NCBI GenBank assembly: GCA_964573625.1
Contig: CAZNJU010000001.1
Span: forward strand, 589,879 to 653,878
Source: Candidatus Woesearchaeota archaeon
GTDB taxonomy: Archaea > Nanobdellota > Nanobdellia > Pacearchaeales > GW2011-AR1
Length of the DNA stretch: 64,000 nucleotides
Direction: 5' to 3'
Of the stretch, positions 18,807-63,229 are shown in pieces (position 1 is the stretch's first letter; each line of letters opens with the position of its first letter). The notes under the pieces are model-generated. The model saw only the letters and a program-made list of their open reading frames with translations, did not search any database and was not told the origin of the DNA. The position numbers and the translations under genes were made by a program.

Positions 18807-18880
18807 GGGGACATGGTCCAACTTGGTTAGGATTTGCGCATGGGGTGTGCACGGTCCGGGTTCAAATCCCGGTGTTCCCA
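18807..18880 (+). tRNA. tRNA-Pro(GGG)
   Basis: GGGGACA...TGCGC-ATGGGGT-GTGCA...CCGGG-TTCAAAT-CCCGG-TGTTCCC A. Confidence 0.92.
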
Positions 18881-18932
18881 TTAACAGAGAAACCTGATTT
18901 TTCATTCTTTTAAAAATATTAGATTATTCAGA

Positions 18933-19412
18933 TTACTTACTTTTATTTTTTGGAAAGTATAGATCGAAAGATTTACTCATTAAGTAGAAAATAGCTAATA
19001 TACCTGTTACCAAAGGAGCAATTAGTAATAAACCTCCAAGAATCAAATGCCTCGTAAAAAATATTGGAAAGATATTAATTATATTTGCTAAGAGTGCTAA
19101 ACCTGTGGCAATTAATAAAGAAATAAAGGTTACAGTCATTCCTAAGTCATAGGAAAAAGCTTCAAACTTTTTTAGTTTCAAAGAATTTTCCAAAGAACGA
19201 TCATAACCTGCGCGAAACGCAACAATTATAGTATATATGAAGAAAATAAAAAGAGCCGTGGGAAAAAGAGTTTGTGATAAAACAAATAGAACTCCTTCTA
19301 CAGTAAAAACTTCGTATTTAGTCCCCTTAGGAATATATTGTAAAATTCCAAACAACATAGCTAGTAAAACAGCAATTATCGTAAGACGCAAAGTTGTTTT
19401 GTTTTCGCCCAT
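18933..19412 (-). CDS. AT-rich multi-TM hypothetical protein
   Basis: Four hydrophobic segments; lies downstream of tRNA-Pro. Confidence 0.65.
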   Translation of the reverse strand: MGENKTTLRLTIIAVLLAMLFGILQYIPKGTKYEVFTVEGVLFVLSQTLFPTALFIFFIYTIIVAFRAGYDRSLENSLKLKKFEAFSYDLGMTVTFISLLIATGLALLANIINIFPIFFTRHLILGGLLLIAPLVTGILAIFYLMSKSFDLYFPKNKSK

Positions 19413-19516
19413 ATTTATTCTTTTTTAGTCAGTTTAAAAATTTTTATATACTTTAAAAAATAGGAATTCAGTTATATTTCAAACACGTTTAAATAGAATA
19501 CTCTCCATAATTATAG

Positions 19517-24640: not shown

Positions 24641-25855
24641 ATGGAAGAAGTAATCTCGGGTTGGCATTACGATAGAATACTTACACAGAGGAAAGGAGAA
24701 ATTCAAATAGCGTATGCTGAACAAGAGCGAATTAAAAGATTAAATAAAGAAAATCTTGCGAGATATCAAATTATTGAACGCACTAAAAGCTGGGCCAAAC
24801 ATGGATTAACCCCTGAAACTGCCGCTGAGAATGTTGCCATAGGTAAAACAACTCTAAAAAAAGATTACACTCAAAAAGCGGTTAAGGAATATGATCTTAC
24901 CAGAAAAGCTCATCCTATTCTTATTGGGCCTGCAACGCTCGATAGTTTGTTCGAATCAGAACCAGATCGTATGGACTATATTAAAGAAGGAAAATTTCCT
25001 TTTGATGATGTTTTCTTTGAATTTATGGAACCAGTTGATCATCGTTTGCCAGGTTATTCTCTCTCTGCCAAGATATGTGGTCTCCAACTTAATAAAATTC
25101 CAGTTTATCATGAAGACTCTGGCCAAAAAACTGATATATATAATCTTGCTACCTATTTCAGCTTAGAAGATGGAACGTATGGAGAAATAGTTGCGCCAAT
25201 TCTCCAAAAAGAGCAACTGTCTCTAGAAGTATGTGTAAGGCTTCCTCGTAATAAGGAAAGACTCGTCATGACAAGAGATATCAAAACAGAAGGGGAACTT
25301 GCTCAACTAGGGGCAATCTCAAACTGGAGAAGGGATAAAGATATGCCTCCGCATCATCCTTATCATTTTACTAACCAGCCTCCTGAATTTGATTTTCCTT
25401 TAGAAAATGTAGACTTAACGGAAGTCACTTCATGTATAGGTAGCTTGAATACCCTTGGAGTAAATATCATTAATTTCATTAATGCACAAAACGTTACTTT
25501 GGTTCCCCACGATAGAAAAGTAAGAACTCGAATTCTACGTCCAGGTAATCGCCCTATTGTTCACGAAGCGAACGCACCTTACCATATTGTAAGCATTGAT
25601 ACTAAATTCATTGATGTTGAAGAGGACAGAGAATCTACTGGGACCCTTCCATGGAGGGTGTACGTAAGAGGACATAATCGAAAGTACAGAGACGATCAAG
25701 GCACTATCCGATTGGTAACCTGGGTTACTCCTCATGTGCGTGGGCCAGATGGCGCTCCTTGGAGACACCACAGGTATGCGGTTTTAGCTGAAATGCTACA
25801 GAAGGAAAGAAACGATCTAACGCGATACGTTCCTAAAATTCCTCAAAATGATTGA
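24641..25855 (+). CDS. Hypothetical protein with a C-terminal VRGH..W..PHVRG motif
   Basis: 404-aa ORF with TATA box; the motif is of a type I associate with phage and MGE hypotheticals. Confidence 0.75.
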   Translation: MEEVISGWHYDRILTQRKGEIQIAYAEQERIKRLNKENLARYQIIERTKSWAKHGLTPETAAENVAIGKTTLKKDYTQKAVKEYDLTRKAHPILIGPATLDSLFESEPDRMDYIKEGKFPFDDVFFEFMEPVDHRLPGYSLSAKICGLQLNKIPVYHEDSGQKTDIYNLATYFSLEDGTYGEIVAPILQKEQLSLEVCVRLPRNKERLVMTRDIKTEGELAQLGAISNWRRDKDMPPHHPYHFTNQPPEFDFPLENVDLTEVTSCIGSLNTLGVNIINFINAQNVTLVPHDRKVRTRILRPGNRPIVHEANAPYHIVSIDTKFIDVEEDRESTGTLPWRVYVRGHNRKYRDDQGTIRLVTWVTPHVRGPDGAPWRHHRYAVLAEMLQKERNDLTRYVPKIPQND

Positions 25856-26095: not shown

Positions 26096-26332
26096 CTAAT
26101 TGAGCAATCTGATTCCATGGGCAAACACGATTTCAATTACTTTTTCTTCTTTAAGTAAATACAAAACTTCACGGCATTGTACTTTAGTTATAGAAAAGTT
26201 TCTGCATATTTTCTGATAGACATCTGCAAATGGAACAATTATCTTTTTCGTATCGCGTTGAACTTCTTCCAATCTCTGAAGAAAGATAGCATACAATCCC
26301 CTTGAGGTATCAATTTGTTTTTGTTGCTGCAT
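26096..26332 (-). CDS. Small winged-HTH-like protein
   Basis: FADVYQKICRNFSITKVQCREVLYLL pattern; divergent from the pilin operon. Confidence 0.55.
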   Translation of the reverse strand: MQQQKQIDTSRGLYAIFLQRLEEVQRDTKKIIVPFADVYQKICRNFSITKVQCREVLYLLKEEKVIEIVFAHGIRLLN

Positions 26333-26611: not shown

Positions 26612-26947
26612 ATGAAAAAACAATCCTTATTGTTAGCAGGCCTCTTAGTAGTCATGCTTTACGGCTTACCCTTAGTGGTTGCGTTTGACTTTAATCAAAC
26701 CATAACGCCTGAGCAACAAGCAACCTTTGACCACATTCTAGAGCCCGTAATGAAAATATATAATTTAGTAAAGTACACGGCAACAGGGGTAGCGGCTATG
26801 GTTCTCTTATTTGCAGGCATTAGTTATATTACTGGAGGATCAGACCCCAAGAAACGAGATAATGCCAAAGGAATGGCGATGTATACAGTAATTGGCTTAG
26901 TCGTTATTTGGGCAGCCCCGTTAGTGGTTCAATTCATAGTAGGCTAA
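26612..26947 (+). CDS. TrbC/VirB2-like pilin
   Basis: AGGAGG RBS, signal peptide, two TM helices, GSDPKKRDNAK..MY...GL motif. Start refined. Confidence 0.8.
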   Translation: MKKQSLLLAGLLVVMLYGLPLVVAFDFNQTITPEQQATFDHILEPVMKIYNLVKYTATGVAAMVLLFAGISYITGGSDPKKRDNAKGMAMYTVIGLVVIWAAPLVVQFIVG

Positions 26948-26948
26948 G

Positions 26949-27338
26949 ATGAAATGGCTTATTGCGTTGTTTCTTATAGCTGGAAGCGTGGCTCTTGCGT
27001 TATATGCAGAGCCCGCTCTAGCATGCCCTTCGCATATTTATTGTTCTAACTTTACCCAACCCGACAAGATAGAAGATTGCCACTATGTCCTTCAGCAGAA
27101 CCTTCATCACGAAGAAGAACAAGATCTCTTGTGTATTTTATGGGATCAAACGTATGGCACTAATGGTCTCTATCAACCGCCTTCTGGTTCAATCAATACA
27201 ACCGTTTCTTTACCTTATCGCGAAATAGACAATGGTTCGTTTATTCTTGCAGGTAAAATCCTAACGATCATATTAGTCAATTATTGCGTAGTCTCTATTG
27301 GCAAATCGTCACTTATACTGAGGTTATTCGGCTTATGA
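26949..27338 (+). CDS. Membrane protein of the pilin module (paralog of 63230-63619)
   Basis: AEPALACPS.IYCSNFT shared with the paralog. Confidence 0.75.
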   Translation: MKWLIALFLIAGSVALALYAEPALACPSHIYCSNFTQPDKIEDCHYVLQQNLHHEEEQDLLCILWDQTYGTNGLYQPPSGSINTTVSLPYREIDNGSFILAGKILTIILVNYCVVSIGKSSLILRLFGL

Positions 27339-27398
27339 TGTTAATTGAAAGGAGGGTGCTTTAGAAGGGCTTAAATATCGCCCCCAGAGTGGATTTTT

Positions 27399-27761
27399 AT
27401 GGTAAGAGTACCGGACTACATTAAGGCAAGACAGCGATCTCTTGAACAGGTTACTACTGCTCGAAATATGTTTGGATCAGATAATGTTGAAGTTCTCGGT
27501 AGAGACACAATGTATCCATGTCATTTCTTCGTTAAATCTCAAGAAGGACAAGAAGTAGTGAGATTTTATGTAAATCTAGATGATCAGAAGATAGATACCT
27601 TACCAAGAACATACGATTCGGCCAAGAAACTTGCTAGAAAATATGAATCTAAAGACGGGCGTGGTTCATGGAACGTAAAAAGAAATGGTCGTCGTGAAGA
27701 ATTAATTGAGAAAATAAAATTACCAAAGCACGATATACCTAATTGGTCGACTGCGGTTTAA
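27399..27761 (+). CDS. Hypothetical protein inserted in the pilin module
   Basis: Absent from the paralogous module at 63 kb. Confidence 0.6.
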   Translation: MVRVPDYIKARQRSLEQVTTARNMFGSDNVEVLGRDTMYPCHFFVKSQEGQEVVRFYVNLDDQKIDTLPRTYDSAKKLARKYESKDGRGSWNVKRNGRREELIEKIKLPKHDIPNWSTAV

Positions 27762-28552
27762 TTAATCTCGGCACGTGTCTGCCTCAAAAGCTGTTTGAGT
27801 TTCTGCTTAGTGTCATCAATGCCCCTATTCAGCCGTTCTTGCAATTAACACTTAATCTCTTATCAGAACCCATTAATCTTAACCTCTTTGTGAATATGTG
27901 GGTTATTGTCATTTATTGTTTATCGATGTTCTATGCGCTGTTGCTCTTAGCATCTGGCTTTAACTTCATGATTTCAGGTTATGACTCAGCCAAACGAGAG
28001 AACGCAAAGAGCTGGCTCAGAAACGTGGTTATTATGATTGTGCTGGTTCAAGCATCCTTCTTTATCTACCAACTCGCTATTGATTTGTCCGCAAGTGTAA
28101 CCTCTGCTACACTTACCTTAGTTGATCACAATTTCTTTCTCATCACGCTCAACAGTATTTCCGATCTGGGAATGGCGTTACTCTTCGGACTCATTTACAT
28201 CATGACGCTTATTGTAACGTCTTTGGTGTTGGTTATTCGGTATACGTTTGTAGCGATCGGCGTGGTCTTGTTTCCCGTAGCTATTTTCTTTTATTTCATG
28301 CCGCCTCTAAGATCGTATGGCTCGTTGCTCCTTAATTTCTTAGGAAGTGCTATTTTTATCACGGTTATTGATGCAATACTATTAGCCGGCTTCTCGCAAT
28401 TGGTAAACGTGAGTATCTTTGGCAATATGAAAGTAATTGTGCTTATTGCAGCCTTTCTATGTATCAGCGCCTTCATGCTCTTTATTCTCTGCTTTAGTAT
28501 TGTCAAAGCAGGCTTTAGCGTCTATCATGAAGTAAAGAGGTTCAAGTCCTAA
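27743..28552 (+). CDS. Polytopic membrane protein, VirB6/TrbL-like position
   Basis: About 6 TM segments; lies between the pilin and VirB4 genes; TTG start. Confidence 0.65.
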   Translation: MVDCGLINLGTCLPQKLFEFLLSVINAPIQPFLQLTLNLLSEPINLNLFVNMWVIVIYCLSMFYALLLLASGFNFMISGYDSAKRENAKSWLRNVVIMIVLVQASFFIYQLAIDLSASVTSATLTLVDHNFFLITLNSISDLGMALLFGLIYIMTLIVTSLVLVIRYTFVAIGVVLFPVAIFFYFMPPLRSYGSLLLNFLGSAIFITVIDAILLAGFSQLVNVSIFGNMKVIVLIAAFLCISAFMLFILCFSIVKAGFSVYHEVKRFKS

Positions 28553-31506
28553 TGGTCTACGAAATACCACAACAACTTGAGTATAAGGAAAAGATCATGT
28601 TTGGTCTTACGTTCAAGCAACTTGCATACGCGTTGCTCTTTGCACCATTTATTGCGTTCTTGTTCTTCAAAACAAGTCTTCCGTTCTATCTTAAGATGTT
28701 CTTCTCTATCAATCTGTCAGGATTGGCGGTCGGATTTATCTTTCTCGATCTAGACAAACATCTGAAGAATTGGACTATCTGGTTGAGAAGTAGAAAAATC
28801 GTAAAACCAGAGAAGCGAGCACAGCTCATTCCTATTAAAGAGATCAAAAACAACATAATTATTAATAAAAAAGGAAAGAAGATTGCGGTTCTCAAGATCA
28901 CTCCGATTAATTTCTCCATAAAGCCCGAAAATGTAAAAGAAACAATCTCGGCCATGTTTCAAAAGTTTCTCAATAGCCTTGACTTTCCCGTTCAAATCGT
29001 CATGAATACAGAAACACTGGATTTACGCGACTATCTTACCGAAGTTGATAAGAAAATACAGCAAAATAAGTTGTTTGCAGAGCTTTTTACGAAATATAAA
29101 GAACATTTAGAAGCAATTACACAACAGAATAAAGTCATGAACAGAAACTTCTACTTGGTCATTCCTGAAAAGAACGATATAGAAATTCAGCTACAATTAT
29201 GCAAGAATAAACTGGAAAGTATTGGCCTCAGAACGTCTCGTGTCCTTAATGCTGAACTGAGCAAACTAACGAATCACTTTTTTGAATGTGTAGAAGAAGA
29301 CGGATCACTTATTCCCCCTACTATAGAAAATACGCCTTCCTATGTGAAAGTAGGTACTACGTTTCATAGAACCATTGCAGCCTATGGCTATCCGAGAACC
29401 GTAGAAGCAGGTTTTCTAGATAAAATCGTAAGCAGTTCAGGTAATTTTGATCTTTCGATTCATATTGAACCGTATGATATTGAAACCATGATGGTAGATA
29501 TCAATAAAGAGCTTCAAAAGCAGCGAGCTGACCTCTTTAGTGCTAAATCCAAAGGTATTTTGAATCCGAGTTTAGAGATCAAATACAAAGACACGAAAGG
29601 AGTGCTTACCAACCTTCAGAAAGGTGTAGAGAAGCTTTTCAATGTAGGTCTCTATATTAATTGCAGAGCTGCAAGCAAAGCAGAACTTGACCTGCTTACT
29701 CGAAAAGTAGAGTCAGAACTTAATGCGTTGCTCATTATTCCTAAACAACCTTCTTTTAGGATGCTTCAAGCCTTGCAATCGTGTGCTCCTTTGGCGATGA
29801 ATCATCTGAAAATCCGTAGAAACGTGCCTACCGGTGCGTTATCGGCTTTCTTTCCCTTTACTTCTTCATTCCTACAAGCTGATGCAAATGGTATTTGGTT
29901 CGGACTCAATAAAAATAACATTCCTATTATCAAAGACATCTTTAGTTTGAGCAATCCTAATGGTTTTTGCCTTGCAAGTTCTGGTTCAGGGAAAAGCTAT
30001 ATGGCCAAACTCTTCATTGCGCGGCATTTGATGAATGGTACGAAGGTCATGGTTATTGATCCACAAGGAGAGTATCGCGGTCTGGTAGAACGGTTTAAAG
30101 GGCAACGTATTGATTTAAGCAGGTCTTCTAACACGATTATTAATCCGTTAGACCTTATGGGACATGAGTACGCGGAGAAACGTCTTGCGCTGATGGATCT
30201 GATGCCTTTAATGCTGGGTGAACTGACCGAACCCCAGAAATCGTTTATTGATGTTGCTCTTACAACCGCCTATGAAAATTGCGGCATTACAAATAATCCT
30301 GAAACATGGAATAACAAACCCCCTATTCTAGAAGATATCCTACGCGTATTGACTAGTATGGAACGAAAGGCCAGTAGCTTAGAAAAGATGACGATTCGAA
30401 GCATTTCCAATCGATTACGCATGTACGTTGATGGTGTATTCTCATTTCTCAATAAGCAAACGACAATCAATTTCAATAATCGGTTTGTTTGTTTTGATAT
30501 AGGAAGCTTACCTAAGCAAGTAAAGCCAGTCATGATGTTTCTGGTGCTTGACTATGTATACATGAAGATGAAGAGCGATCTTGAAAGAAAGCTCTTAGTA
30601 ATAGATGAAGCATGGTCTATTCTGAGCCGTGCAGAAGAAGCTTCGTACATCTTTGAAATCGTCAAAACGTGCAGGAAGTTCAATTTAGCGCTGTTCCTTA
30701 TTAATCAAGAAGTAGAAGGGCTCTTAACATCTGAAGCAGGAAAGTCAGTTCTTGCTAATAGTTCGTATACTCTATTGATGCGTCAAAAACCAGCCGTTAT
30801 CAAAAGCATCCAAAATACGTTCTCACTTAGCGAGACAGAGCGCATGTTTCTTCTTACCGCAGCCGTAGGAGAAGGCCTCCTTATCTTAGATGATGAACAC
30901 TCAGAGATTCGTATTGTTGCGTCTGAAGAAGAACATGCAGTTATAACCACTAATGCGGATGAGCGATTGAGTCAGCAAAAGACTAATCCTCAAGATCATG
31001 TTCAAAAACAAAAGTCAGTCAGTATAACCGTAGATTCAGATAAGCGATTCTATTTATCGCGTAATGTATCCAAAGATAATCGAGACTATCTTCTCTCAAA
31101 GGGCTACGTTTTAGCTGCTCATAAGAATATTCATGGAAAAAAAGAAAGCTATCTCTTAAAGAAACGAGCAAATGAGAATATGGAACATTTCTTTCTTACG
31201 TTTGACATTGCCGAGTATCTGAAGACTTTAACAGACCAAGTTTATTTGTATGAAACGACTAAACCAGATATCGTTTTCGAACTTAAGGGAAAAAGGTATG
31301 CGATTGAAGTTGAAACCGGTAAAACACTTCAGACTTTTAGAAAACAGTTAGATGAGAAAATAGCTGTACTCAATGAAGAATACGAAAAGAGATGGTGTTT
31401 TGTAGTTACGAACGAGAACTTTGCTCCAACTTACAATACATTAGGAAAAACATTCACAAGAACGACGTTTCTTAAACAATTTTCAAAATGGATTAAAAAG
31501 GTCTAA
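28552..31506 (+). CDS. PrgI/VirB3-like + VirB4-type ATPase + C-terminal PD-(D/E)xK-like domain fusion
   Basis: EKIMFGLTFKQL N-terminus; ASSGSGKS Walker A; VIDPQGEY; VIDEAW Walker B; KPDIV..YAIEVETG C-terminus. Confidence 0.85.
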   Translation: MVYEIPQQLEYKEKIMFGLTFKQLAYALLFAPFIAFLFFKTSLPFYLKMFFSINLSGLAVGFIFLDLDKHLKNWTIWLRSRKIVKPEKRAQLIPIKEIKNNIIINKKGKKIAVLKITPINFSIKPENVKETISAMFQKFLNSLDFPVQIVMNTETLDLRDYLTEVDKKIQQNKLFAELFTKYKEHLEAITQQNKVMNRNFYLVIPEKNDIEIQLQLCKNKLESIGLRTSRVLNAELSKLTNHFFECVEEDGSLIPPTIENTPSYVKVGTTFHRTIAAYGYPRTVEAGFLDKIVSSSGNFDLSIHIEPYDIETMMVDINKELQKQRADLFSAKSKGILNPSLEIKYKDTKGVLTNLQKGVEKLFNVGLYINCRAASKAELDLLTRKVESELNALLIIPKQPSFRMLQALQSCAPLAMNHLKIRRNVPTGALSAFFPFTSSFLQADANGIWFGLNKNNIPIIKDIFSLSNPNGFCLASSGSGKSYMAKLFIARHLMNGTKVMVIDPQGEYRGLVERFKGQRIDLSRSSNTIINPLDLMGHEYAEKRLALMDLMPLMLGELTEPQKSFIDVALTTAYENCGITNNPETWNNKPPILEDILRVLTSMERKASSLEKMTIRSISNRLRMYVDGVFSFLNKQTTINFNNRFVCFDIGSLPKQVKPVMMFLVLDYVYMKMKSDLERKLLVIDEAWSILSRAEEASYIFEIVKTCRKFNLALFLINQEVEGLLTSEAGKSVLANSSYTLLMRQKPAVIKSIQNTFSLSETERMFLLTAAVGEGLLILDDEHSEIRIVASEEEHAVITTNADERLSQQKTNPQDHVQKQKSVSITVDSDKRFYLSRNVSKDNRDYLLSKGYVLAAHKNIHGKKESYLLKKRANENMEHFFLTFDIAEYLKTLTDQVYLYETTKPDIVFELKGKRYAIEVETGKTLQTFRKQLDEKIAVLNEEYEKRWCFVVTNENFAPTYNTLGKTFTRTTFLKQFSKWIKKV

Positions 31507-32173: not shown

Positions 32174-35100
32174 ATGCAAAAAAGACCCAATTTTAATGAA
32201 CTATGTGAGGAAAAGGCAAGGGCCGGGGATAAACATGCCTCGTATATACTGAGAAGAGCGAGTGATACTGGAGGTGTTCCGTTACAGATCGAAATAGATT
32301 ATGAACGAAAAAGGCTTGAATCATACGAGCGTGCAGGTATAGAAACGTATAAAGTAGTGACAAAAACAGGCGAACAGACAAGAACACTCGGAGACTTACG
32401 AGCCCAAATAGGAAGAGCAGAAGAACTAGGGATACTTGATGGTAGCCTTTCTATGAGCTATGAAGGAGCAAAAAGAGTATATGAAAAAGTACGCGATATT
32501 ATATCAAAAAAAAATTCTAGTGATAGAAAAGGTTCTTCAGGCAAATTCCTTGAAATATTAGATGCTTTTGATCCCGCCCGAGATAGCGATCTTATTGCTA
32601 CAGGGGCTTTTGTCCTTGATCCACAAGTACGAAAATATGTTGATGGGAGATTAGAAGGATTGTATAAGGCAGTGTTAAGCGTGGGTTCGCATAAACGTTC
32701 AGGTTATACTCTACCTGTTCATGAGTCAAGACCCTCCTTTGCCGGCGGAGACGTAGTCTCTCCACGATTAAAGGCATTGTTAGAGTCCATTCCGGAAGCT
32801 AAAACAACTGAAGAAGAGGAGAATCAAAAAGCACTTAAACTACTTATACACAAAAGAGCAGAAAGAGATGTCTTCCCTCTCTTTAAGCATGATGTTGGCA
32901 GTGCATTTTCACAATTAGAGAAGCTACTAGGTAAAGAGAAAAATCTGCATCTTCGTCAAGAATATGAATCATTAAGAGATGTCTATCAAAAATATCTGGA
33001 ATTTGAAGTACCTGGTGTAAACCCTAATTTTGTCGATCCAACTACGGGGCAGAAAGATGTTTTGCCTTCGTTACATCAAAGGATTGGTATTTATGGGATT
33101 GTTAAAAGTTTAGATGATAACGGACGATTTGGAATTTGGGACGGCGGTGGGACAGGTAAAACAGCACAAGTTATTTTGGCACAGCCGCTTATAGAGCGCA
33201 AGTTAGCGGAGCGAGGACATATTTTTAACAGAGCAGTGATTGTGGGGCCCAATCCTTCAAAAAGAGCATGGAAGAAAGGATTGATAGGAAGCGATACTGA
33301 GAGATATTTAGCTGAGCCGCAAAATGTGTTTGTTATTAACGGTGAACAAAAGACTGACGAATTACTTGACAGGATGGGCAAGGCTAAGTGGATCGTAACT
33401 AATTATGAGCAACTTATAACGCGCGTTAATGGAGACGACAGACTTCTTGTAGATGTATTGACTGATATGGGTGTGGACTTAGTAGCATTTGATGAGGCGC
33501 AGCACATTAAAGGACAGAGAAATATGACTCGTGGCGGAAGCACAAGAGAGCCAACGTTAACTCAAAGCGCCGCTGCAAGACAATTAGCTCTTCAAGCAAA
33601 ATGTTTTGTTCCATTATCGGCAACTCCTATTTCAAATGGTCTTGATGATTTTGCAGTCCTCTATCATCTTATTAACCCTGAAGAACTTAAAGACCCAAAG
33701 AAATTTCAGGATAAAATTAAAGATTCTCCAAGAAAACTTTACACGTTCTTTCATGAAAAGTCAGTGCGTAGAACGGCAGAAGACATTAATGAGGAATTAG
33801 ATTGGTCAGAAGATATTTGTGAGGTCGAGTTAGACGAAGTTCAAAGGCAAATTTACGATCATATTGTTACACATCGTCCTGGAAATTGGATGACTCAAGC
33901 TCGAAAAGCGCTTACTGATCCGCGACTTGTCGATCCTGAAATTTTAAAGAATGTAGGAGTTTTAGGACAAATTACCCACAGAAATTCGGCTAAGTATAAG
34001 GCATTGGAGGAATTGTTAAAATCTGATGATGGGCCCATAGCGCGCGGAGAGAAATTCGTGGTGTTTTCTATGTTAATGGAAGGGGTAACTCAGAAAGGAA
34101 ATGAAAATCTTCAGAGGAGATATGCTGAAATGGGAATAGCACAAGAATATGATAAATTACAGCTTGACCTATCAATAGATTCATTATTAAGTCAAGCACT
34201 GAAAGACGAATATCAGCGAGACTTTAAAATAGGAGTAATTGATGGTACGGTAGACGCTTCTAAGGAAAGAGATAAGGTGGTCGAAGGCCTTGCTGGTGAA
34301 TTATCAGGTATTGTATGCACAACAAAAACCGGCGGAGAAAGTTTAGACTTTACAGCAGCTAATTGGATGTATTTCTTAGATAAAGACTTTAAACCAGACA
34401 CAGAAGAGCAAGCTATTTGGAGAGAATTAAGACGGGGACAAAAAAGAAAAGTTAATATTTGGCATCTAGAAGCCCTAGATACACTTGAAGAAAAGCTTGA
34501 TGTATATGTAGAAAAGAAAAGACTTACAGCAAAAATAGCAATGGATGGTCATCCTCCTACGAAAGAAGAATGGGAGCTGCTTGATGACACAGAAGGTAAG
34601 CGCCTAGGAGACCTAATAAAAAGAGGGCTAGGTGGAAAGTCTATTAACGTATATGATGCGCCCATCACAGAGATCTCTGACTTTGAAGCAAAGAAAAGAA
34701 CTGGTAGAGGGGGCAAGCATTATGGAACAGGTGTTTTCGATTATACTACTACTGAAGCTCAAGAAATTATGCGTCTTATTGGTCAAAAGCCACAAGAATG
34801 CTGGTTCGATCCTAACTTTGTAGAGCTTTACATGAAAGCACTTCCTAACTTATCTACACATGTTACTAATCTTGCCCGTGTTGCAGATTTAGTAGCTCGA
34901 GCAAAACGAGGAGAGATAGAGTTCCCAGGAAACGTTCTTGCTGAAGCTTCCGGGCCATCGATGCTCTATCGTGCTTACCAAGAATTAAGACCTCTTATAG
35001 AAAAACGAAGACTTGCAGTGCCTAAAGTCACCGATAGAGATTTATCTCCGATTATGTTGGCTGAAGGAACCAATCCGAACAAGATTCTCGGCGATATGAC

Positions 35101-35725
35101 TGGAAAAGATAGCACGTTACAGGCAGAAAGTTTTGATATGGTAGACAACGGATCTCTTGCTCTATTAAGAAATCCTGCAGAGGTTTATCAATCATTACTC
35201 GAATCTCATCGTATCTTGAAGCCAGAAGGGTTACTTGAACTTACTCTTAAGAATAAACGATTTTTGGACAGCGGTGAAGATGACAAAATTATTGGATTTC
35301 ATGCAGGATTAGAACGACTCGGATTTAAGGTTCTAACAGGAAAGAATGAAGGATTTGCCATAAGCAAAAATCTTACGAGAAGACTCAAAGATATGCATGG
35401 TGAACATTTTGCAGAAGCGTATGCTGCTAAATTGGCTAATACTTATCTGCTCGTAGCACAAAAAATGGACAATCCTGTTCACGTCCACTCTGATAATTTC
35501 TGGTTTGAAACCATATATCCCGAAGCAGAAGAAGATAAGGCTCATGAGCAAACCCTTCAAGGACCTTCCTCGCTATCATCTTTAAAGGTGAGGAGCAAAG
35601 GAGCGAAAATAAAGAGAGAACCAAGAGCAAAAGTTACCGAAACGAACGATTTCATTCATTTAGCGGATAGCAGCGGAAATGTTCATTCTGTGAGAAAAAA
35701 ACAAGGAGAAGATAAAAATGAGTAA
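32174..35725 (+). CDS. SNF2-family helicase/translocase fused to a class I SAM methyltransferase-like domain
   Basis: GGTGKT, DEAQ, SATP, GGESLDF, EEQAIWRE..RGQ. C-terminal VLAEASGP, DRDLS..ML, ESFDMV, HRILKPEG. Confidence 0.85.
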   Translation: MQKRPNFNELCEEKARAGDKHASYILRRASDTGGVPLQIEIDYERKRLESYERAGIETYKVVTKTGEQTRTLGDLRAQIGRAEELGILDGSLSMSYEGAKRVYEKVRDIISKKNSSDRKGSSGKFLEILDAFDPARDSDLIATGAFVLDPQVRKYVDGRLEGLYKAVLSVGSHKRSGYTLPVHESRPSFAGGDVVSPRLKALLESIPEAKTTEEEENQKALKLLIHKRAERDVFPLFKHDVGSAFSQLEKLLGKEKNLHLRQEYESLRDVYQKYLEFEVPGVNPNFVDPTTGQKDVLPSLHQRIGIYGIVKSLDDNGRFGIWDGGGTGKTAQVILAQPLIERKLAERGHIFNRAVIVGPNPSKRAWKKGLIGSDTERYLAEPQNVFVINGEQKTDELLDRMGKAKWIVTNYEQLITRVNGDDRLLVDVLTDMGVDLVAFDEAQHIKGQRNMTRGGSTREPTLTQSAAARQLALQAKCFVPLSATPISNGLDDFAVLYHLINPEELKDPKKFQDKIKDSPRKLYTFFHEKSVRRTAEDINEELDWSEDICEVELDEVQRQIYDHIVTHRPGNWMTQARKALTDPRLVDPEILKNVGVLGQITHRNSAKYKALEELLKSDDGPIARGEKFVVFSMLMEGVTQKGNENLQRRYAEMGIAQEYDKLQLDLSIDSLLSQALKDEYQRDFKIGVIDGTVDASKERDKVVEGLAGELSGIVCTTKTGGESLDFTAANWMYFLDKDFKPDTEEQAIWRELRRGQKRKVNIWHLEALDTLEEKLDVYVEKKRLTAKIAMDGHPPTKEEWELLDDTEGKRLGDLIKRGLGGKSINVYDAPITEISDFEAKKRTGRGGKHYGTGVFDYTTTEAQEIMRLIGQKPQECWFDPNFVELYMKALPNLSTHVTNLARVADLVARAKRGEIEFPGNVLAEASGPSMLYRAYQELRPLIEKRRLAVPKVTDRDLSPIMLAEGTNPNKILGDMTGKDSTLQAESFDMVDNGSLALLRNPAEVYQSLLESHRILKPEGLLELTLKNKRFLDSGEDDKIIGFHAGLERLGFKVLTGKNEGFAISKNLTRRLKDMHGEHFAEAYAAKLANTYLLVAQKMDNPVHVHSDNFWFETIYPEAEEDKAHEQTLQGPSSLSSLKVRSKGAKIKREPRAKVTETNDFIHLADSSGNVHSVRKKQGEDKNE

Positions 35726-37067
35726 GAAAAGACCAAACGGCTATTGGCAAAATAGAAGCTATCTTGAAAGAGAATTTAGAAGAATAGCAGGAGAAATGGG
35801 ACGATTTCCTACTACTACCGAATTAGACGATATGGGATATTCTAATATAGTTAGGGCAGCAGTAGTTTATCATGGAGGTGTAAACGCCGTAAGAGAATCA
35901 TTGGGATACGATAAGCCTGTAGATAAAAGAACTAGAGAATCCCTTTGGCCTGATTTTAAGAAGTGGGAACAATACGGTGTTAATAATGGCTTTGATAAGA
36001 AGAGTCCTACCGAAATAAATGATAGCAAAAAGAAGAAAGATAGAGTATGGTTCAAAAAAGGCCAGAGAGCAGGATGGATAAGTGATTTTGATTTCAAGAG
36101 AAAGAGAATTGAAGGCCAATGGAAAGATGCTCAGACGTGGATAAGCGACGGAAATGCTAGAGGATATGACAGTAAAGGCCCAAAGGAATTGGCGGATTCT
36201 AAAGATAAATACGAAAGAAGTTGGTACAATAAAGGGCAAAGAAAAGATTGGGTCAAGGATTTCAATTTTAATAGGCAGTGTGTTCCTGTTACTTGGCAAA
36301 CTCAGGAGTCTTGGAAACAATATGGCGTGGATAGAGGATACGAAGATAGAGTATGTCATACATTAAGAAAAAGTAAAGACTTTCAAGAAAGATCGTGGTT
36401 AACAAAGGGGGAACGGGAAAAATGGATAGATCATTTTCAATTTGCTGAGCGTGAGCCTTCCAATAGATTATGGACTGAAGATAAGGTTGCAGAAGAATGT
36501 AGGAGAGTGGTTGAGAAAAAAGGATATTTGCCTTCAAATGGAGAACTTATTAAATTAGGTTTAGCGCCACTAGCTTCAGCTATCCCCAAACACGGAGGCT
36601 ATCCATATTTCAGAAAAAAGCTGGGTCTTAAGCAAGTTAGCAAGTTATCGGGCTATTGGCAAGACTGGAAAAACGTACAAATTGAATTAAAGGAAGTAAT
36701 AGGGAAATTAGGTCATTTTCCTACAGCAGTGGAACTCAGTCAACTAAAAAAACATAGTCTAGCTATAGCATTACATAAATATCATAAGGGCATATTTGCA
36801 GTACGCGCAAGGATGGGATATAAAGAATCTCAAAGAGCGCATGGAACGCTTTCTACAATGCAAGATGGGGAGTTGATTGAATACGTTAGACAGCATTATG
36901 GAGGAAAAACATTAAAAGAAATGCGTAGCCTAGACGGGTCTTTGCTCGGAGTTCTCTATAAAAGAAATTTAGTGAGAGAAATAGTAGAACTTGGTCTCGT
37001 CACAGCGCGAGGTATAGCAAGTGGCGGAAATTCTTTACTTGAGCAGTATGTAGGAGAGACTATCTAA
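35718..37067 (+). CDS. Modular HTH-like repeat protein 1 (A-B-B-B-A-A-C), tail SLLEQYVGETI
   Basis: Internal ~60-aa repeats read from the translation. Confidence 0.8.
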   Translation: MSKKRPNGYWQNRSYLEREFRRIAGEMGRFPTTTELDDMGYSNIVRAAVVYHGGVNAVRESLGYDKPVDKRTRESLWPDFKKWEQYGVNNGFDKKSPTEINDSKKKKDRVWFKKGQRAGWISDFDFKRKRIEGQWKDAQTWISDGNARGYDSKGPKELADSKDKYERSWYNKGQRKDWVKDFNFNRQCVPVTWQTQESWKQYGVDRGYEDRVCHTLRKSKDFQERSWLTKGEREKWIDHFQFAEREPSNRLWTEDKVAEECRRVVEKKGYLPSNGELIKLGLAPLASAIPKHGGYPYFRKKLGLKQVSKLSGYWQDWKNVQIELKEVIGKLGHFPTAVELSQLKKHSLAIALHKYHKGIFAVRARMGYKESQRAHGTLSTMQDGELIEYVRQHYGGKTLKEMRSLDGSLLGVLYKRNLVREIVELGLVTARGIASGGNSLLEQYVGETI

Positions 37068-37768
37068 TGACCGAGCCAAAACCAGCAAAAGAAAGAAAAG
37101 TTAGAACCGGAGCAACTAAGAAAGAAGATCACTTTTGGACAAAATATGAAAATGTAACCTCAGAATTAGAAAGAGTAATGACTGCTTATAGTTTTAAAAC
37201 AATTCCTTCTAAAAAACAACTTGATGAGGCGGGAGAAAGCTCCCTGGGCAGAGCTATCGGAATGCATGGAGGATTTAGAAAAATAAGGAAGTCCTTTGGA
37301 GAGAAAAAGATAATTACGAAAGTCGGTTCGTGGAAGAGTCAAGAGTATGCTATTGCAAGGGCTCGCGAGATAATGAAAGAGCATGGGTTTGAAAAACTTC
37401 CTGGTAACAAGGAGCTCATTAAATTAGGTTATATGAATCTTGTTCGTGCTATTTATACGCATCATGGAGGGTATCAAAATTTTAGAAAACTGCTCGGAGA
37501 AGAAAGCCCCTATCATAAGAGAGGAAGATGGCAAAGTCTTGACAATTGTGTATATGAAGTAATGAAAATTATGAAGGAACAAGGATTGGAAGAAGTCCCT
37601 TCTAGACGTTATATAGCTACATTCGGGAAATACGGTGGAATGATGTCAGCAATAGATCAGAAACATGGCGGTTTCAGTCGATTTAAAGAAGAAGTACAAG
37701 CAAGACAAGGAAATAATAGAAGTTCTCTTTTAGAATCATATGTGGGAGAAGAAGCTCATGAAGAGTAA
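37067..37768 (+). CDS. Modular repeat protein 2 (A-A-A), tail SLLESYVGEEAHEE
   Basis: Three W...E....P....L...G...L..AI...HGG...FRK..G repeats. Confidence 0.8.
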   Translation: MTEPKPAKERKVRTGATKKEDHFWTKYENVTSELERVMTAYSFKTIPSKKQLDEAGESSLGRAIGMHGGFRKIRKSFGEKKIITKVGSWKSQEYAIARAREIMKEHGFEKLPGNKELIKLGYMNLVRAIYTHHGGYQNFRKLLGEESPYHKRGRWQSLDNCVYEVMKIMKEQGLEEVPSRRYIATFGKYGGMMSAIDQKHGGFSRFKEEVQARQGNNRSSLLESYVGEEAHEE

Positions 37769-38702
37769 GAAAATGATAGAAGTTGAAAGAATAATTGGAG
37801 AACCCGTTGCAGACTACTTTAGAAGAGAGTATGAAGAGAATGATAGAAGCTCGACTTGGATAGCCGACCAAACAGGGATTGGCCCAGCTACTTCGCTTAA
37901 ATGGTTAAAAAGATTTGGAATACCGATAAGAGAAAAGTATCAAAAAAATAAAATACAGCCGCCAAGGAAAAAACCATCTAGAGCGAAGTTACAAAAATTA
38001 TACGTTCAAGAAGGGTTTAGCTTAAAAGATCTAATTAAAAAGTACAAGGTCTCAGACAAAACTATAAAAAAATGGCTAGGGGATTATGAAATTACACTAA
38101 GAGATCGAAGTCAAGCAGCATTGCCTCTTGGATTTCAGCGCCCTTCTAAAGAAGAATTAAACCACTTATATAACGTTCAACGGCTTGACTTGATTGATAT
38201 TTCAGACAAATATGGAGTAGGTCAGGGCACCATTAGTAGATGGATGGAAGAGAACGGCATAAAAAGAAGAAGTATTTCGGAAGCAAAATTGCCTGCCGGC
38301 TTAAAAGTTCCATCAGAGAAAGAGATGAGAGAAAAGTATGAAGTTAAAAGATTAAGTATGTTGGCCATTGCGCAAGAATATAATGTAAATCACAGTACGG
38401 TAGGTAGCTGGCTTGCGCTCCATGGGATAAAAAAGAGAAATAACGAAGTTTCTCCAGGCGAGTGGAAGAGTCTCGATTTTGGATTAGAGCAAGGAAAACT
38501 ATTTTTAGAAGGAAACCCAGAGCATAAAGAATTGCCTAGTTCAAACGTTCTCCGACAAAGAGGGTACGGAGGTTTAGCGAAAGCTATCAATAAATATTAC
38601 GGCGGATTTCCTATTTTTAGAGAAATGTTAAAAGATCATCTGGGTAAAACAAAAGGAGTACAAAATAAATCCCTTTTAGAATCATATGTGGAGAGACAAT
38701 GA
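37758..38702 (+). CDS. Modular repeat protein 3 (D-D-D-D-A), tail SLLESYVERQ
   Basis: Four HTH repeats ending W...GI..R, plus one A repeat. Start refined. Confidence 0.8.
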   Translation: MKSKKMIEVERIIGEPVADYFRREYEENDRSSTWIADQTGIGPATSLKWLKRFGIPIREKYQKNKIQPPRKKPSRAKLQKLYVQEGFSLKDLIKKYKVSDKTIKKWLGDYEITLRDRSQAALPLGFQRPSKEELNHLYNVQRLDLIDISDKYGVGQGTISRWMEENGIKRRSISEAKLPAGLKVPSEKEMREKYEVKRLSMLAIAQEYNVNHSTVGSWLALHGIKKRNNEVSPGEWKSLDFGLEQGKLFLEGNPEHKELPSSNVLRQRGYGGLAKAINKYYGGFPIFREMLKDHLGKTKGVQNKSLLESYVERQ

Positions 38703-48885: not shown

Positions 48886-49095
48886 TTACAAGTACGTCTT
48901 ATCCTTATCCAATAAGCCCTTTTCTTTGAGATGCTTAACTAACGCCTTCCTAATGACTTCCGCATCGGAATAAGAAGGATACTTCAGTCGCTTATGCTTC
49001 ACGCGTTTCATAACTGCTTCGTAGACCGAATCAGGTACTCGAACCGTGATGGTGTGCTTATAACGTCTTCCCATAACGGGAATTATCATCTCCAA
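48886..49095 (-). CDS. Ribbon-helix-helix (CopG-like) regulator
   Basis: TITVRVPDSVYEAV..SDAEVIRKAL pattern. Confidence 0.7.
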   Translation of the reverse strand: MEMIIPVMGRRYKHTITVRVPDSVYEAVMKRVKHKRLKYPSYSDAEVIRKALVKHLKEKGLLDKDKTYL

Positions 49096-49102
49096 GGTAT
49101 TA

Positions 49103-49158
49103 AAAGGTTTCGTTAGGCAATCTTGGTTTCCAGAGCGAATCCAAGCGAAACCTTTATA
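49103..49158. promoter_or_regulatory. Back-to-back BRE/TATA promoters forming a 10-bp inverted repeat
   Basis: AAAGGTTTCG (49103-49112) and CGAAACCTTT (49146-49155), each continuing into a TATA-like run on its own strand. Confidence 0.6.
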
Positions 49159-49309
49159 TACAATCTCTCCAGTTAAAAAAGTACTTATGGCGGCACAAAA
49201 GCCACACGTACAACCTCCAGATCTACGCGATACTCTTTCTTTATTCGGTTCTGTGTGTCAATATTCCTATATTGGATCAAGCGAATCATAAAAGAGGTGT
49301 TCCTATGGA

Positions 49310-49645
49310 ATGCCTAACAAAACACGAAATCCGTTGAAGAAAGAAGCGAAGAAGGAAGAATCCTTCCTTAGTCCTTTGCGTGAGCTTATAGAGATTTCTG
49401 GACCTATGACTTATAATGAAAGCGCGCAAGCTTGGAACATCATTCGCTTGAGAAAAGACATCTTGCACGAATTTCCAGAACTTAAGGACAAACAAGCTAG
49501 TTTTACCTATAGACTCACGATCCCTCGAACGTCTAAGGCTATGAAACGCCATTTTGAGGAAGCGACTAAATCAGAAGAGATTTTACCGATATTTCTCTCA
49601 TTTGCCAAAGTTACAAAGACTGATGAAAATATTCCTAAACAATAG
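49310..49645 (+). CDS. Hypothetical protein
   Basis: GAGGTG RBS upstream. Confidence 0.6.
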   Translation: MPNKTRNPLKKEAKKEESFLSPLRELIEISGPMTYNESAQAWNIIRLRKDILHEFPELKDKQASFTYRLTIPRTSKAMKRHFEEATKSEEILPIFLSFAKVTKTDENIPKQ

Positions 49646-49706
49646 GATTAATTGATTTATCTATCTAAGAAGTTAACTTTTTATAGATGGTTTAATTCAA
49701 TCAACC

Positions 49707-50186
49707 ATGAATATAGCCATGATTACTATTGCATTGATAATTTGGGCAATATGTATGATTTTAGTCTCAGCAATGACTTTTGGTGCAAGAAGATTCGGAA
49801 TAAAAGACAAATATCTCGGATTCGCTTGGGATATTTTCAAATACGTTACTGGCGCATTGTTTGGCTCGATAATAGGAGGCATAAATGGTTAATCAACAAG
49901 AGCTTTTATTCAATTATAGCTTGATTGTAATATTGATATCTATCGCCTTTACACTAACCGGATTTTTTGATTTTCCTAAATATTTTGTTAATCTGTTTAC
50001 AATAATATTTGTAATCTGGCTTGTTATAGCTTTGATTATATTATGGAGAGTTATAAGGTTTAGAAGATGACAAACAATATAATTACTGGAATTGGTGTAG
50101 CTGCGTTCGTAGGAGGAATAATATCAAGAAGAAAAGATATTGCCGGAATAGGCATTGCTATAATGATTCTAGGCGCATTCCTTTAA
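49707..50186 (+). CDS. Three overlapping tiny membrane-protein ORFs (49707-49892, 49885-50070, 50067-50186)
   Basis: Hydrophobic 39-61 aa ORFs with overlapping stop and start codons. Confidence 0.5.
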
Positions 50187-50865: not shown

Positions 50866-52068
50866 TTAGGGAGAGACTGCATGTTCCTTAAGCTTACGAA
50901 CCAGAACTTCGTACACCTCCTTATCATTAATGAGCATATCGAGCATACTATTGATTCCTTTCGTTTCCGCTTCCTTGACTAATATCTCTTGCGCTGCCTC
51001 TTTGTGTAATACGAAGCCACAAACATTACAGAACTTGTTAGTTGTAGGATTAGACTGATGACAGCGTAAGCATGAAAGAGGCTTAAGCTTTGGTTCAATA
51101 ATCGTTTGTGCAGTCGCAATGTTATTCGCACGCAAGATTGCATCATCTGCATCTCTGCCCGACATGTGCACGTAAATGCCTGCCATCTTAGATCCCTGTG
51201 TCCACCCAAAGTAATGCTTCATAGCTGCTTCACTCATAATCTTAGCAAGATGTGTGGCTCTGCTATGTCTAAACAAGTGTGCATGCACATGTTTCTTAAT
51301 GCCTGCGCGTGATGCAGCCAGTTTAATCACATCTACCATACGAGTATAGGTCAAAAAACCGTTAGAGCTTTGCGGATTCCACCAGACCGGTGCTTCAGGA
51401 TCGAAATTCTTCGGATGCACATTAATCCATTGTTGTAAATACGGCGCACTATTAATCACTAATATCTTGCGCATACCGGTTTTACCATTGACAGTAAGGC
51501 GAGCACCATGTTGTTCAAACGAAATATGCTTAATACGCATGGTTCCAATCTCAGAAATCCTGCATCCCGATTCAGCAAGCGACGCAATCAAAGCCTTATT
51601 GCGGAAGGTATCGCACGCTTGTATCATTTGAAGTGATTCTTCTTCAGTTAGCAGCTCTTCAGGCAATTTTCGAGTGCTTTCATGCAGCGCAATAGAAATC
51701 CACTTGACTTCCAACGGATAAACGCCTTTATCAGTGATGCCTCGCATGTACCGATAGAGCTTACGAGTCATAACTTTGAAGCACTTCTTACTTTCAGGAG
51801 CTAAATCTGTCTGTTCAAGATCAGCAATAACGCGTCGTAAGTCCTTCTCAGTCGCATCTCCAAACGGCATGCCCAACATCTTGCTTAATTTTCGTACATC
51901 AAGCAAATACCGTCCAATCTTAGCGACACCAATCCCTTCACTTAGAAGATAATCCTTGAACGCGATAGCCGTTTCTTTATTAATGGGGCTCATATCTATA
52001 GAATTCTTAATGAGTGCAATCTGGCGATCCAGCTGCCCTTTGTAATCGTGTAAGTCTATCGTCATCAT
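50866..52068 (-). CDS. Tyrosine recombinase/integrase with a C-terminal zinc ribbon
   Basis: ESGCRISE, GKTG, HLFRHSR, FGW, IYVH; CLRC..CNVC. Start refined. Confidence 0.92.
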   Translation of the reverse strand: MMTIDLHDYKGQLDRQIALIKNSIDMSPINKETAIAFKDYLLSEGIGVAKIGRYLLDVRKLSKMLGMPFGDATEKDLRRVIADLEQTDLAPESKKCFKVMTRKLYRYMRGITDKGVYPLEVKWISIALHESTRKLPEELLTEEESLQMIQACDTFRNKALIASLAESGCRISEIGTMRIKHISFEQHGARLTVNGKTGMRKILVINSAPYLQQWINVHPKNFDPEAPVWWNPQSSNGFLTYTRMVDVIKLAASRAGIKKHVHAHLFRHSRATHLAKIMSEAAMKHYFGWTQGSKMAGIYVHMSGRDADDAILRANNIATAQTIIEPKLKPLSCLRCHQSNPTTNKFCNVCGFVLHKEAAQEILVKEAETKGINSMLDMLINDKEVYEVLVRKLKEHAVSP

Positions 52069-52140
52069 CGTGTCATGTGATAACGCATCCTCGGTGCTTT
52101 TTATAGCACGATCATCAGACGGGCGTGCAACCAACTCTAA

Positions 52141-61609: not shown

Positions 61610-61676
61610 TCGTTTTAAGACGTAGAATATTTTGAGAGGTAAGATTTAAAAGTCTATAAAAACAAGGTATTTTGTT

Positions 61677-61748: not shown

Positions 61749-61767
61749 ATTTTATCGTCGATAAATA

Positions 61768-63228: not shown

Positions 63229-63229
63229 T

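Follow-up and report, generated by a model that had tools for sequence, protein, structure and literature searches.

Based on family, structure and neighbourhood analyses of a 64,000-nt stretch of DNA from Candidatus Woesearchaeota archaeon (GCA_964573625.1, contig CAZNJU010000001.1, positions 589,879 to 653,878, forward strand; hereafter the window, with position 1 as its first letter), we found that a compact gene cassette resembling a type IV secretion system (T4SS) encodes a VirB3-VirB4 ATPase ending in a domain that is predicted, with good support from modelling, to have the PD-(D/E)xK nuclease fold. In related archaea the domain is fused to VirB4 or encoded directly beside it, and the cassette recurs on integrative elements that target tRNA genes. 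We tentatively read the cassette as the DNA-transfer module of this family of tRNA-integrating elements in Woese- and Pacearchaeales, in which the nuclease tethered to VirB4 would process the DNA. The window genome is represented by a 760-kb contig and is present in two wastewater metagenomes; the metagenome evidence given below, from three runs with this sequence, consists of assembled contigs.

According to the listing of open reading frames (ORFs), five tightly packed, co-directional genes lie on the + strand at 26.5-31.5 kb. A reading made from the letters alone (the sequence-only reading) had placed here a pilin, a small membrane protein, a polytopic membrane protein and an ATPase of 984 amino acids (aa), and all four were present on that strand. 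The genes and the domains of the ATPase, including its transmembrane (TM) helices, are as follows.

26612-26947, + strand: VirB2-like T4SS pilin of 111 aa from an ATG at 26612 (the ORF opens with a TTG at 26546), matched by PF18895 and PF04956.
26949-27338, + strand: small Cys-containing secreted protein with a C-terminal membrane anchor, as judged from hydrophobic segments at the N- and C-terminus.
27399-27761, + strand: soluble protein of 120 aa, a copy-specific insertion outside the conserved cassette and a singleton in clustering.
27743-28552, + strand: polytopic membrane protein with seven predicted TM helices, directly upstream of VirB4.
28552-31506, + strand: 984-aa fusion of VirB3/PrgI, VirB4 and a nuclease-fold domain, with matches in Pfam, PDB and NCBIfam.
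28564-28812, + strand: PrgI/VirB3-like segment of this fusion, residues 5-87, with two TM helices (PF12666).
29947-30975, + strand: VirB4/TraG-type P-loop ATPase domain, residues 466-808 (PF19044).
31015-31503, + strand: C-terminal domain, residues 822-984, a small alpha/beta subdomain plus a core modelled with the PD-(D/E)xK fold (AlphaFold2, Foldseek).

The last 163 residues of the fusion were modelled with AlphaFold2 from an alignment of 29 homologous C-termini (A1), which gave a pLDDT (predicted local distance difference test) of 93.6, a pTM (predicted template-modelling score) of 0.88 and a core in the order alpha-beta-beta-beta-alpha-beta. This model superseded a single-sequence prediction of residues 788-984, which was unusable at a pLDDT of 43. 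Foldseek matches to the PDB were mostly PD-(D/E)xK nucleases, namely EndoMS/NucS, YaeQ, Cdn1, R.BspD6I, RecU and McrC, and further Hjc, PspGI, TnsA, Can2 and MUS81/XPF. Among the viral models of BFVD they comprised 'competence protein', Vsr-like and restriction endonucleases, Holliday-junction resolvases and VRR-NUC, and the probabilities went up to 0.97 in the PDB and up to 0.97-1.0 over the two databases together. Residues ~810-984 had no match in NCBIfam and gave nothing in the PDB profile search, and the sole Pfam match of the domain, DUF1993, was judged to be spurious. No tblastn match of the domain was obtained in 72,556 plasmids. With a profile of this domain by itself, 690 cluster representatives were recovered from 1.84 billion proteins.

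Residue conservation was assessed in 24 aligned full-length relatives with 45-78% identity to the VirB4 of the window. It was found that E875, H879, D906, E919, E921 and K936 are invariant in these proteins and P905 nearly so. In the model D906 and E919-x-E921 take the canonical positions, at the start of strand 2 and at the end of strand 3 respectively, with E921 at the position of the lysine; E875 and H879 lie on helix 1 and the invariant K936 on the helix after strand 3. The sequence-only reading was supported as to the PD-(D/E)xK-like fold, for which it had proposed a Foldseek comparison, and exact as to the motif KPDIV(x8)AIEVETG, which reads KPDIV-FELKGKRY-AIEVETG with eight residues between its halves, but the canonical lysine is a glutamate. 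A motif of this E-x-E kind occurs in BamHI. Strict invariance of the acidic set and K936 at this level of divergence argues for a conserved active site, and on the model catalytic competence of the domain is plausible.

The ATPase domain matched PF19044 (E 1.3e-27) and the DUF87/HerA central domain (E 1.9e-15), and the best solved structure for the 984-aa protein was the VirB4 C-terminal domain (PDB chain 4ag5, E 3.6e-32). Both the Walker A motif (A475..G478.G480-K481-S482) and the Walker B motif (LLVIDE, 681-686) are intact and invariant. The NCBIfam model conju_CD1110 scored 317.8 bits (E 1.4e-94), below its curated cut-off of 325, and the model for VirB4 of the Mbov_0397 integrative and conjugative element (ICE) of mycoplasma scored 306 bits, below its curated cut-off of 590. 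The nearest homologues on plasmids are annotated conjugal-transfer VirB4 genes of monoderm bacteria. At the N-terminus, where a PrgI-like segment had been read from the sequence, PF12666 was matched at 27.1 bits, marginally above the cut-off of 27.0, and two TM helices were predicted at residues 21-67. The VirB3-like segment is an ORF of its own (~105 aa) in six related loci; fusions of VirB3 with VirB4 are commonplace.

The pilin matched PF18895 (T4SS_pilin) with 52 bits (E 7.4e-14, cut-off 26.6) and PF04956 (TrbC/VirB2) with 33.8 bits (E 4e-8, cut-off 27.9), and it has three predicted hydrophobic segments, a signal or TM segment and two TM helices. Its PDB profile search gave nothing except chance matches to RNase-kappa membrane segments at E 0.04. 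Residues ~51-105 of the polytopic protein are homologous to the pilin (hhalign probability 96.7%, E 3.6e-10), and the two proteins have the motif SG-D-KRE-AK in common, so that the polytopic protein may, from its sequence, have arisen by duplication of the pilin. It had no TrbL/VirB6 match in Pfam or NCBIfam and its PDB profile search was empty; from its place at the VirB6/CedA position it is presumed to be a channel component. The small protein between the two had no match in Pfam or NCBIfam. In the related loci this second position is filled either by a ~130-aa form (cluster 5, 25 loci) or by a ~455-aa form (cluster 4, 28 loci), both with the same N-terminal Cys motif, and the protein is a candidate surface or adhesin component. 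The 120-aa ORF also lacked matches in Pfam and NCBIfam. It is missing from the paralogous cassette of the same genome, where a contig at full genome depth joins 27375 to 27740 and skips 27376-27739, as well as from L001 and L003 (L-numbers are labels of loci in related genomes).

The association of the C-terminal domain with VirB4 is close. All of the 80 complete VirB4 ORFs of relatives carry it, so the fusion is conserved among them, and the coupling to T4SS-like genes persists where the two are split. The profile search also recovered a stand-alone form of the domain, in proteins of 290-420 aa in which two TM helices at the N-terminus and a coiled coil precede the nuclease-fold domain. In L091, L085 and L086 a stand-alone gene of this kind lies directly 3' of a VirB4 gene that has no such domain; the VirB4 of L091 has 866 aa, its stop overlaps the start of the nuclease-domain gene, and the gene order of the locus is otherwise typical (integrase, c26, pilin, small protein, polytopic protein, VirB4; c-numbers denote protein clusters in related elements). 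Fusion in most genomes and adjacency in a few point to a functional partnership with VirB4, and the obligatory linkage argues for a role in the machine itself. In the fused as well as the split form the domain would be held at the cytoplasmic face of the membrane.

The domain was also seen in other settings. In L088, L098, L104, L143 and L161 a nuclease-domain gene adjoins an integrase. The form with two TM helices and a coiled coil stands beside the integrase and often opposite a reverse transcriptase (L088, 1476-2435; L098; L104, 8001-9071; L143), and in a type I restriction-modification locus (L132, 1869-3116) the domain is fused to an HsdS-like half. Its occurrence next to integrases and an HsdS-like half fits a DNA-cutting module used by mobile elements.

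A word-indexed search returned 780 relatives of the VirB4 fusion. The best 120 of these are 56-78% identical to it, all except two have 950-1,134 aa, and they belong to Nano-, Pace- or Woesearchaeota where the source names them. When one genome per species was scanned (185,579 representatives), 207 encoding stretches were confirmed, some of them second copies in one genome, and the best 80 of the 207 came almost all from metagenome-assembled genomes of Woese-, Pace- or Nanoarchaeota. At least eight genomes hold two copies of the cassette. The figure of 207 stretches in 185,579 representatives, among which Nanoarchaeota were not counted separately, suggests a patchy distribution, and within the collections searched the fusion appears to be confined to the Woese-/Pace-/Nanoarchaeota lineage.

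The cassette recurs in the same order in dozens of genomes, which is far from a chance arrangement. ORFs were called and clustered in 85 loci of relatives; 73 of these have the polytopic protein along with the VirB4 fusion, and 63 have the pilin. On the upstream side the loci commonly have an N4/N6 DNA methyltransferase gene in the opposite orientation (35 loci) and genes for a 64-aa protein, a Zn-ribbon protein and a tyrosine integrase, which belongs to one family in 24 of the 85 loci and to another in 4; downstream follow variable cargo and then the small genes c20 and c6, the latter in 25 loci. Upstream sequence of at least 8 kb was available for 48 loci, and in 22 of them a tyrosine integrase precedes the cassette. 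In many loci ARAGORN placed a tRNA gene right before the integrase, mostly tRNA-Asp(GTC) and also tRNA-Glu and tRNA-Gly, and the junction of tRNA-Asp(GTC) with the integrase was found in L003/L015, L019, L024, L025, L031, L035, L043, L051 and L054. These loci form a compact element family with a backbone of tRNA, integrase, methyltransferase, four-gene cassette, cargo and the end genes c20 and c6.

One complete element, L035, spans 14.7 kb. Its limits are given by tRNA-Asp and a direct repeat of 15 bp: the final 15 nt of the tRNA-Asp region reappear ~150 nt after c6, with c20 just inside attR, the right attachment (att) site. Besides the four cassette genes, c20 and c6, it encodes an integrase, a methyltransferase, a reverse transcriptase and four unknown proteins, one of them with a Walker A motif; no relaxase, coupling protein or replication initiator was found in it with Pfam. 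When att repeats were sought after c6 in the other loci, L035 alone gave one. The cargo includes copper and heavy-metal resistance with Fic (L001), type I restriction-modification (L003) and the reverse transcriptase of L035, and the family probably shuttles defence and resistance genes among Woese- and Pacearchaeales. On one 697-kb contig (L041/L082) two elements stand in tandem, with a tRNA-Ile within 17 nt of the c6 of the first and before the next element, an arrangement suggestive of tandem arrays at tRNA hot-spots.

Between 24 and 56 kb, nearly all ORFs of 100 aa or more were compared with Pfam, and subsets of them also with NCBIfam, PHROGs and PADLOC. No relaxase family was matched by any scanned ORF, and no VirD4/TraG/FtsK-type ATPase was found among them; no ORF of at least 449 aa in the whole window is a type IV coupling protein (T4CP). 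The sequence-only reading, which recognised neither protein at 25.9-52.2 kb, was thus upheld for every ORF scanned. What was matched were a methylpurine glycosylase, the giant fusion of an SNF2 helicase with a methyltransferase, helix-turn-helix (HTH) proteins, an S-adenosylmethionine (SAM) methyltransferase, an M42 peptidase, a PIN/MazE pair and the integrase. The CedD model was touched by VirB4 itself alone, with 41.9 bits at a cut-off of 600, and in 80 loci no second recurrent P-loop ATPase was found within 10 kb of VirB4. With neither relaxase nor T4CP found in the window or in the L035 element, the cassette falls short of a conjugative system in the strict sense. The premise that conjugation normally needs both proteins has to be narrowed for archaea, in which conjugative elements without relaxases are already the norm (PMC9905601).

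The window itself holds one element of the family around the cassette and the beginning of a second one, with the following features.

26096-26332, - strand: c26 protein of 78 aa (tblastn, 43-49% identity to genes upstream of the pilin in L001 and L022).
48889-49089, - strand: c20 protein of ~66 aa, a right-end marker (tblastn, 36-52% identity to c20 of L001, L020 and L074).
49310-49645, + strand: c6 protein of 111 aa, the last conserved gene of related elements (25 tblastn matches, best E 3.5e-24).
50866-52134, - strand: tyrosine recombinase of the XerA/phage-integrase type (PF00589, E 8e-19; XerA_Arch, E 7.9e-26).
52141-52182, - strand: 3' half of a tRNA-Asp(GTC), 42 nt, read directly from the sequence and abutting the integrase start.
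61676-64000, + strand: second element of the family, starting at an intact tRNA-Asp(GTC) and running off the window.
61753-61956, - strand: c7-like gene of the second element.
62031-62594, - strand: DNA methyltransferase of the second element.
62717-62899: Zn-ribbon protein of the second element.
62899-63228: pilin of the second element.
63230-63619: small protein of the second element.

The first element probably spans from ~26.0 kb, at c26, to ~49.7-50.0 kb, because the homologues of the end markers c20 and c6 lie at 48889-49645. The c26 family is found between integrase and pilin in L091. Upstream of c26, where relatives have their integrase, a 404-aa ORF (24641-25855, + strand) gave a weak match to phrog_15934, a family of unknown function (E 2.8e-5); as a divergent integrase or relaxase this ORF was rejected, with no support from Pfam, NCBIfam, PHROGs or hidden Markov models of integrases, and it bears no signature of a replication protein (Rep) either. 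The integrase of the window lies beyond the first element and its following PIN/MazE pair, and it shares 37-50% identity with the integrases found upstream of the cassette in L022, L049 and L059. Other contigs of the same metagenomes share the 42 nt of the tRNA-Asp fragment next to it and then continue into the 5' half of the tRNA. The fragment and the intact tRNA-Asp at 61.7 kb have different T-arms. Integration into another tRNA-Asp allele probably left the fragment behind as an att remnant; because of the difference in the T-arm, the fragment at 52.1 kb and the intact gene at 61.7 kb were rejected as an inverted att pair.

No integrase was found in the second element in the interval from tRNA to methyltransferase. 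The second element accounts for a paralogous VirB4 on the same 760-kb contig (P0002), which is 78% identical to the one described, and for the contig depth, which is doubled over 26.6-30 kb in both wastewater metagenomes. In each of the two metagenomes a second contig of the same depth also contains the 67-nt intergenic stretch just upstream of c6 (49099-49165), so this stretch has another copy in the genome, possibly at the second element. One of the contigs of run X2 (depth 51 against 101) seems to leave out 46782-49966, which are 3.2 kb with c20 and c6, a weak observation with 21 nt on one side; a loose contig end was seen at 49987.

Downstream of the cassette, the genes at 32174-39709 form an operon read in one direction, over which both GC and AT skew are strongly positive. 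Its products are a fusion of an SNF2 helicase with a methyltransferase (1183 aa), a 449-aa protein that faintly matches an HNH repeat, a 233-aa protein, a 320-aa protein with multiple HTH domains and a 336-aa protein of unknown function, and the operon looks like anti-restriction or defence cargo of the element. Outside the element, a 414-aa protein (53427-54671, - strand) has a Sigma-70 region 2 domain (E 5e-13) in an otherwise archaeal genome and may be of bacterial or mobile-element origin; it adjoins a 603-aa protein with a weak HATPase_c_3 match. At 18843-19487, one contig of run X2 (depth 33 against ~120) has 40 nt in place of these 645 nt, and the 40 nt restore the tRNA 3' end next to a tRNA-Pro (18807-18880). 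From these depths, most of the population carries a small tRNA-Pro insertion that includes the ORF at 18933-19412.

Since the conserved backbone consists essentially of integration functions and the cassette, self-transfer is the most economical role for the latter. Taken as a whole, a DNA-transfer module with a VirB4-tethered nuclease that processes the DNA is the reading that we favour, and it is about as likely to be right as wrong. In such a module the pilin and the pilin-derived polytopic protein would form a conduit like that of VirB2 and VirB6, the variable secreted protein would be a surface or recognition component, and a membrane-anchored VirB3-VirB4 hexamer would be the sole motor. 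As the cassette lies on integrase-bearing, tRNA-targeting elements, an excised circle is a plausible substrate; the tyrosine integrase would excise the element in this form, as the most likely substrate of the machine. At the channel the element DNA would then be nicked or cut by the PD-(D/E)xK-fold domain, which is attached to the cytoplasmic end of VirB4 or, in the split form, held next to it by two TM helices of its own. The cut would make a DNA end that is fed into the machine, and VirB4 would drive the DNA through the pilin/polytopic conduit, so that the nuclease domain would stand in for the relaxase and VirB4 would double as coupling protein. Nuclease activity, substrate, direction of export and VirB4 as a DNA pump are parts of this scheme that we infer.

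A bolder form of the same idea, that VirB3-VirB4-nuclease is a self-contained 'cut-and-pump' translocase replacing both relaxase and coupling protein, seems to us rather doubtful. If true, it would constitute a third mechanistic class beside relaxase-led transfer of single-stranded DNA and the FtsK-like TraB transfer of double-stranded DNA, and archaeal conjugation would have its first concrete candidate for the DNA-processing enzyme that it has been missing.

Several observations weigh against DNA transfer by the cassette. The Foldseek E-values of the nuclease-fold domain are modest (1e-3 to 1e-1) with TM-scores of 0.3-0.46, and in the E-x-E motif the canonical catalytic lysine is replaced by glutamate. 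DNA pumping by VirB4 is not known from any system. The element in the window is atypical, with its integrase 20 kb away and inverted in comparison to relatives and with a mere fragment of a tRNA. No convincing att direct repeats were found in the window, where the tRNA-Asp core has no second copy at up to three mismatches, and no circular or attP junction was found in the assembled contigs of the metagenomes with the window sequence. As to recent horizontal spread, the closest VirB4 outside the own genome is ~66% identical among the matches listed. Finally, the 760-kb genome might hold a VirD4-like ATPase gene outside the window, just as CedD of Sulfolobus is encoded at a locus separate from the other ced genes (PMC11823120).

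The first of three other explanations is an import machine like Ced or Ted that pulls the DNA of neighbours into the DPANN cell, with the nuclease degrading one strand or trimming ends on the cytoplasmic side as bacterial competence nucleases do. The gene set agrees with the description of Ced, which has a polytopic CedA, the two-TM proteins CedA1 and CedA2, of which CedA1 forms the pilus, and a membrane-bound VirB4-like CedB (PMC11823120, PMC9905601). The failure to find a relaxase agrees with import as well, and the reduced genomes of DPANN archaea might profit from imported DNA. However, the cassette is the main backbone of multicopy elements with integrase, tRNA and variable cargo, which is expected of self-transfer and not of host repair. 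In addition, the ATPase scored 318 and 306 bits with the models of bacterial conjugative VirB4 and 41.9 bits with that of CedD, and Ced needs the VirD4-like CedD, none of which was found here. We therefore regard import as unlikely.

It is also conceivable that the C-terminal domain serves something other than transfer, either as an entry-exclusion or defence nuclease against incoming competing DNA or as a dead module for DNA binding or oligomerisation. Such a role would agree with the glutamate at the lysine position, with the presence of the domain beside integrases where no T4SS is visible and in fusion with an HsdS-like protein, and with the richness of the elements in defence cargo. Two things speak against it, the strict invariance of the acidic set and K936 in 24 proteins of 45-78% identity and the fact that the domain is obligatorily linked to VirB4, either fused to it or encoded by a neighbouring gene that overlaps, and we consider it quite improbable. 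The least probable explanation is a host-interaction device of an episymbiont, that is an adhesion pilus or a machine for macromolecule uptake or effector delivery whose nuclease degrades host nucleic acid for nucleotides: a secreted component varying from 130 to 455 aa would be expected for host recognition, fixed chromosomal T4SSs without relaxase have been proposed to be non-conjugative in Patescibacteria (PMC12102498), and the nanohaloarchaeal SPEARE giants, proposed to act on hosts, carry VirB4/TraG-like ATPase domains (PMC10266531), but the cassette sits inside integrative elements beside defence and cargo genes and not in the core genome, its distribution is suggested to be patchy by the same count of stretches, and the nuclease is by predicted topology cytoplasmic and tethered to the ATPase rather than secreted.

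In comparison to known systems, the cassette resembles conjugative T4SSs of the mating-pair formation (MPF) class FATA, such as those of the Tn916/CD1110 family and of mycoplasma ICEs, in its VirB4 scores, its PrgI-like module and its location on integrative elements. It differs from them in that no relaxase, T4CP or other recognisable MPF accessory protein was found, and in having a clear VirB2-like pilin and a C-terminal domain of predicted PD-(D/E)xK fold on VirB4. By analogy, the cassette may work like an MPF-FATA-type T4SS stripped to VirB2, VirB3, VirB4 and a VirB6-like protein.

In the conjugative plasmids and ICEs of Sulfolobales and Nitrososphaeria, a VirB4-like ATPase (TrbE) and a VirD4-like one (TraG) are encoded together with many further genes. 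In the literature searched we found no report of a nuclease fusion in these elements. They are alike in being self-transmissible with no recognisable relaxase (PMC9905601), and the way in which archaeal conjugative elements ready and transport their DNA in this situation is still debated as an open question (PMC9905601). A hexameric ATPase of the FtsK-HerA superfamily combined with a nuclease is also known from the 'motor plus nuclease' systems HerA-NurA and terminase. The HerA-NurA complex is soluble. Its nuclease NurA is a separate protein with an RNase-H fold (PMC9905601), whereas that of the cassette has a predicted PD-(D/E)xK fold and is fused to the T4SS ATPase or membrane-anchored beside it. 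HerA-NurA has been suggested by Beltran et al. to generate the transfer substrate in archaea without relaxases (PMC9905601).

The Ced and Ted systems of Sulfolobales and Thermoproteales are similar by their published description, with a polytopic protein, two-TM pilin-like proteins, a membrane-bound VirB4/HerA-like ATPase and no relaxase (PMC9905601, PMC11823120). Ced is a UV-induced chromosomal system for DNA import that depends on the VirD4-like CedD; the cassette, in contrast, is part of a mobile element, lacks a second ATPase in its vicinity and has the nuclease-fold domain fused to VirB4. The T4SSs of Patescibacteria (candidate phyla radiation, CPR) likewise belong to ultra-small episymbionts, with an MPF-FATA-related VirB4, VirB2-like pilins (PF18895, PF04956) and usually no relaxase (PMC12102498). 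They are described as nearly universal and chromosomally fixed, and the word 'nuclease' is absent from the text describing them (PMC12102498), whereas the DPANN cassette appears patchy and is linked to integrases and tRNA genes and always accompanied by the nuclease-fold domain. The SPEARE giants of Nanohaloarchaeota, also from DPANN, have a TM segment followed by a VirB4/TraG-like ATPase, and a restriction-endonuclease domain was once claimed for them (PMC10266531). This endonuclease assignment is disputed and the proteins are giant adhesins (PMC10266531), in contrast to the VirB3-VirB4 of the cassette, which is of ordinary size and has its nuclease fold from a confident model.

Relaxase-less archaeal elements are already known and a VirB3-VirB4 fusion is ordinary. 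In the literature searched we found neither a described VirB4-nuclease fusion nor a DPANN ICE family. New, as far as this literature goes, are the obligatory PD-(D/E)xK-fold domain on VirB4, the putatively pilin-derived polytopic protein and the compact, tRNA-Asp-targeting element family of Nanoarchaeota. The obligatory attachment of this domain to the only ATPase of the cassette names a specific enzyme and residues (D906, E919, E921 and K936) that can be tested in vitro without culturing the archaeon, and the cassette offers a natural model of a minimal T4SS.

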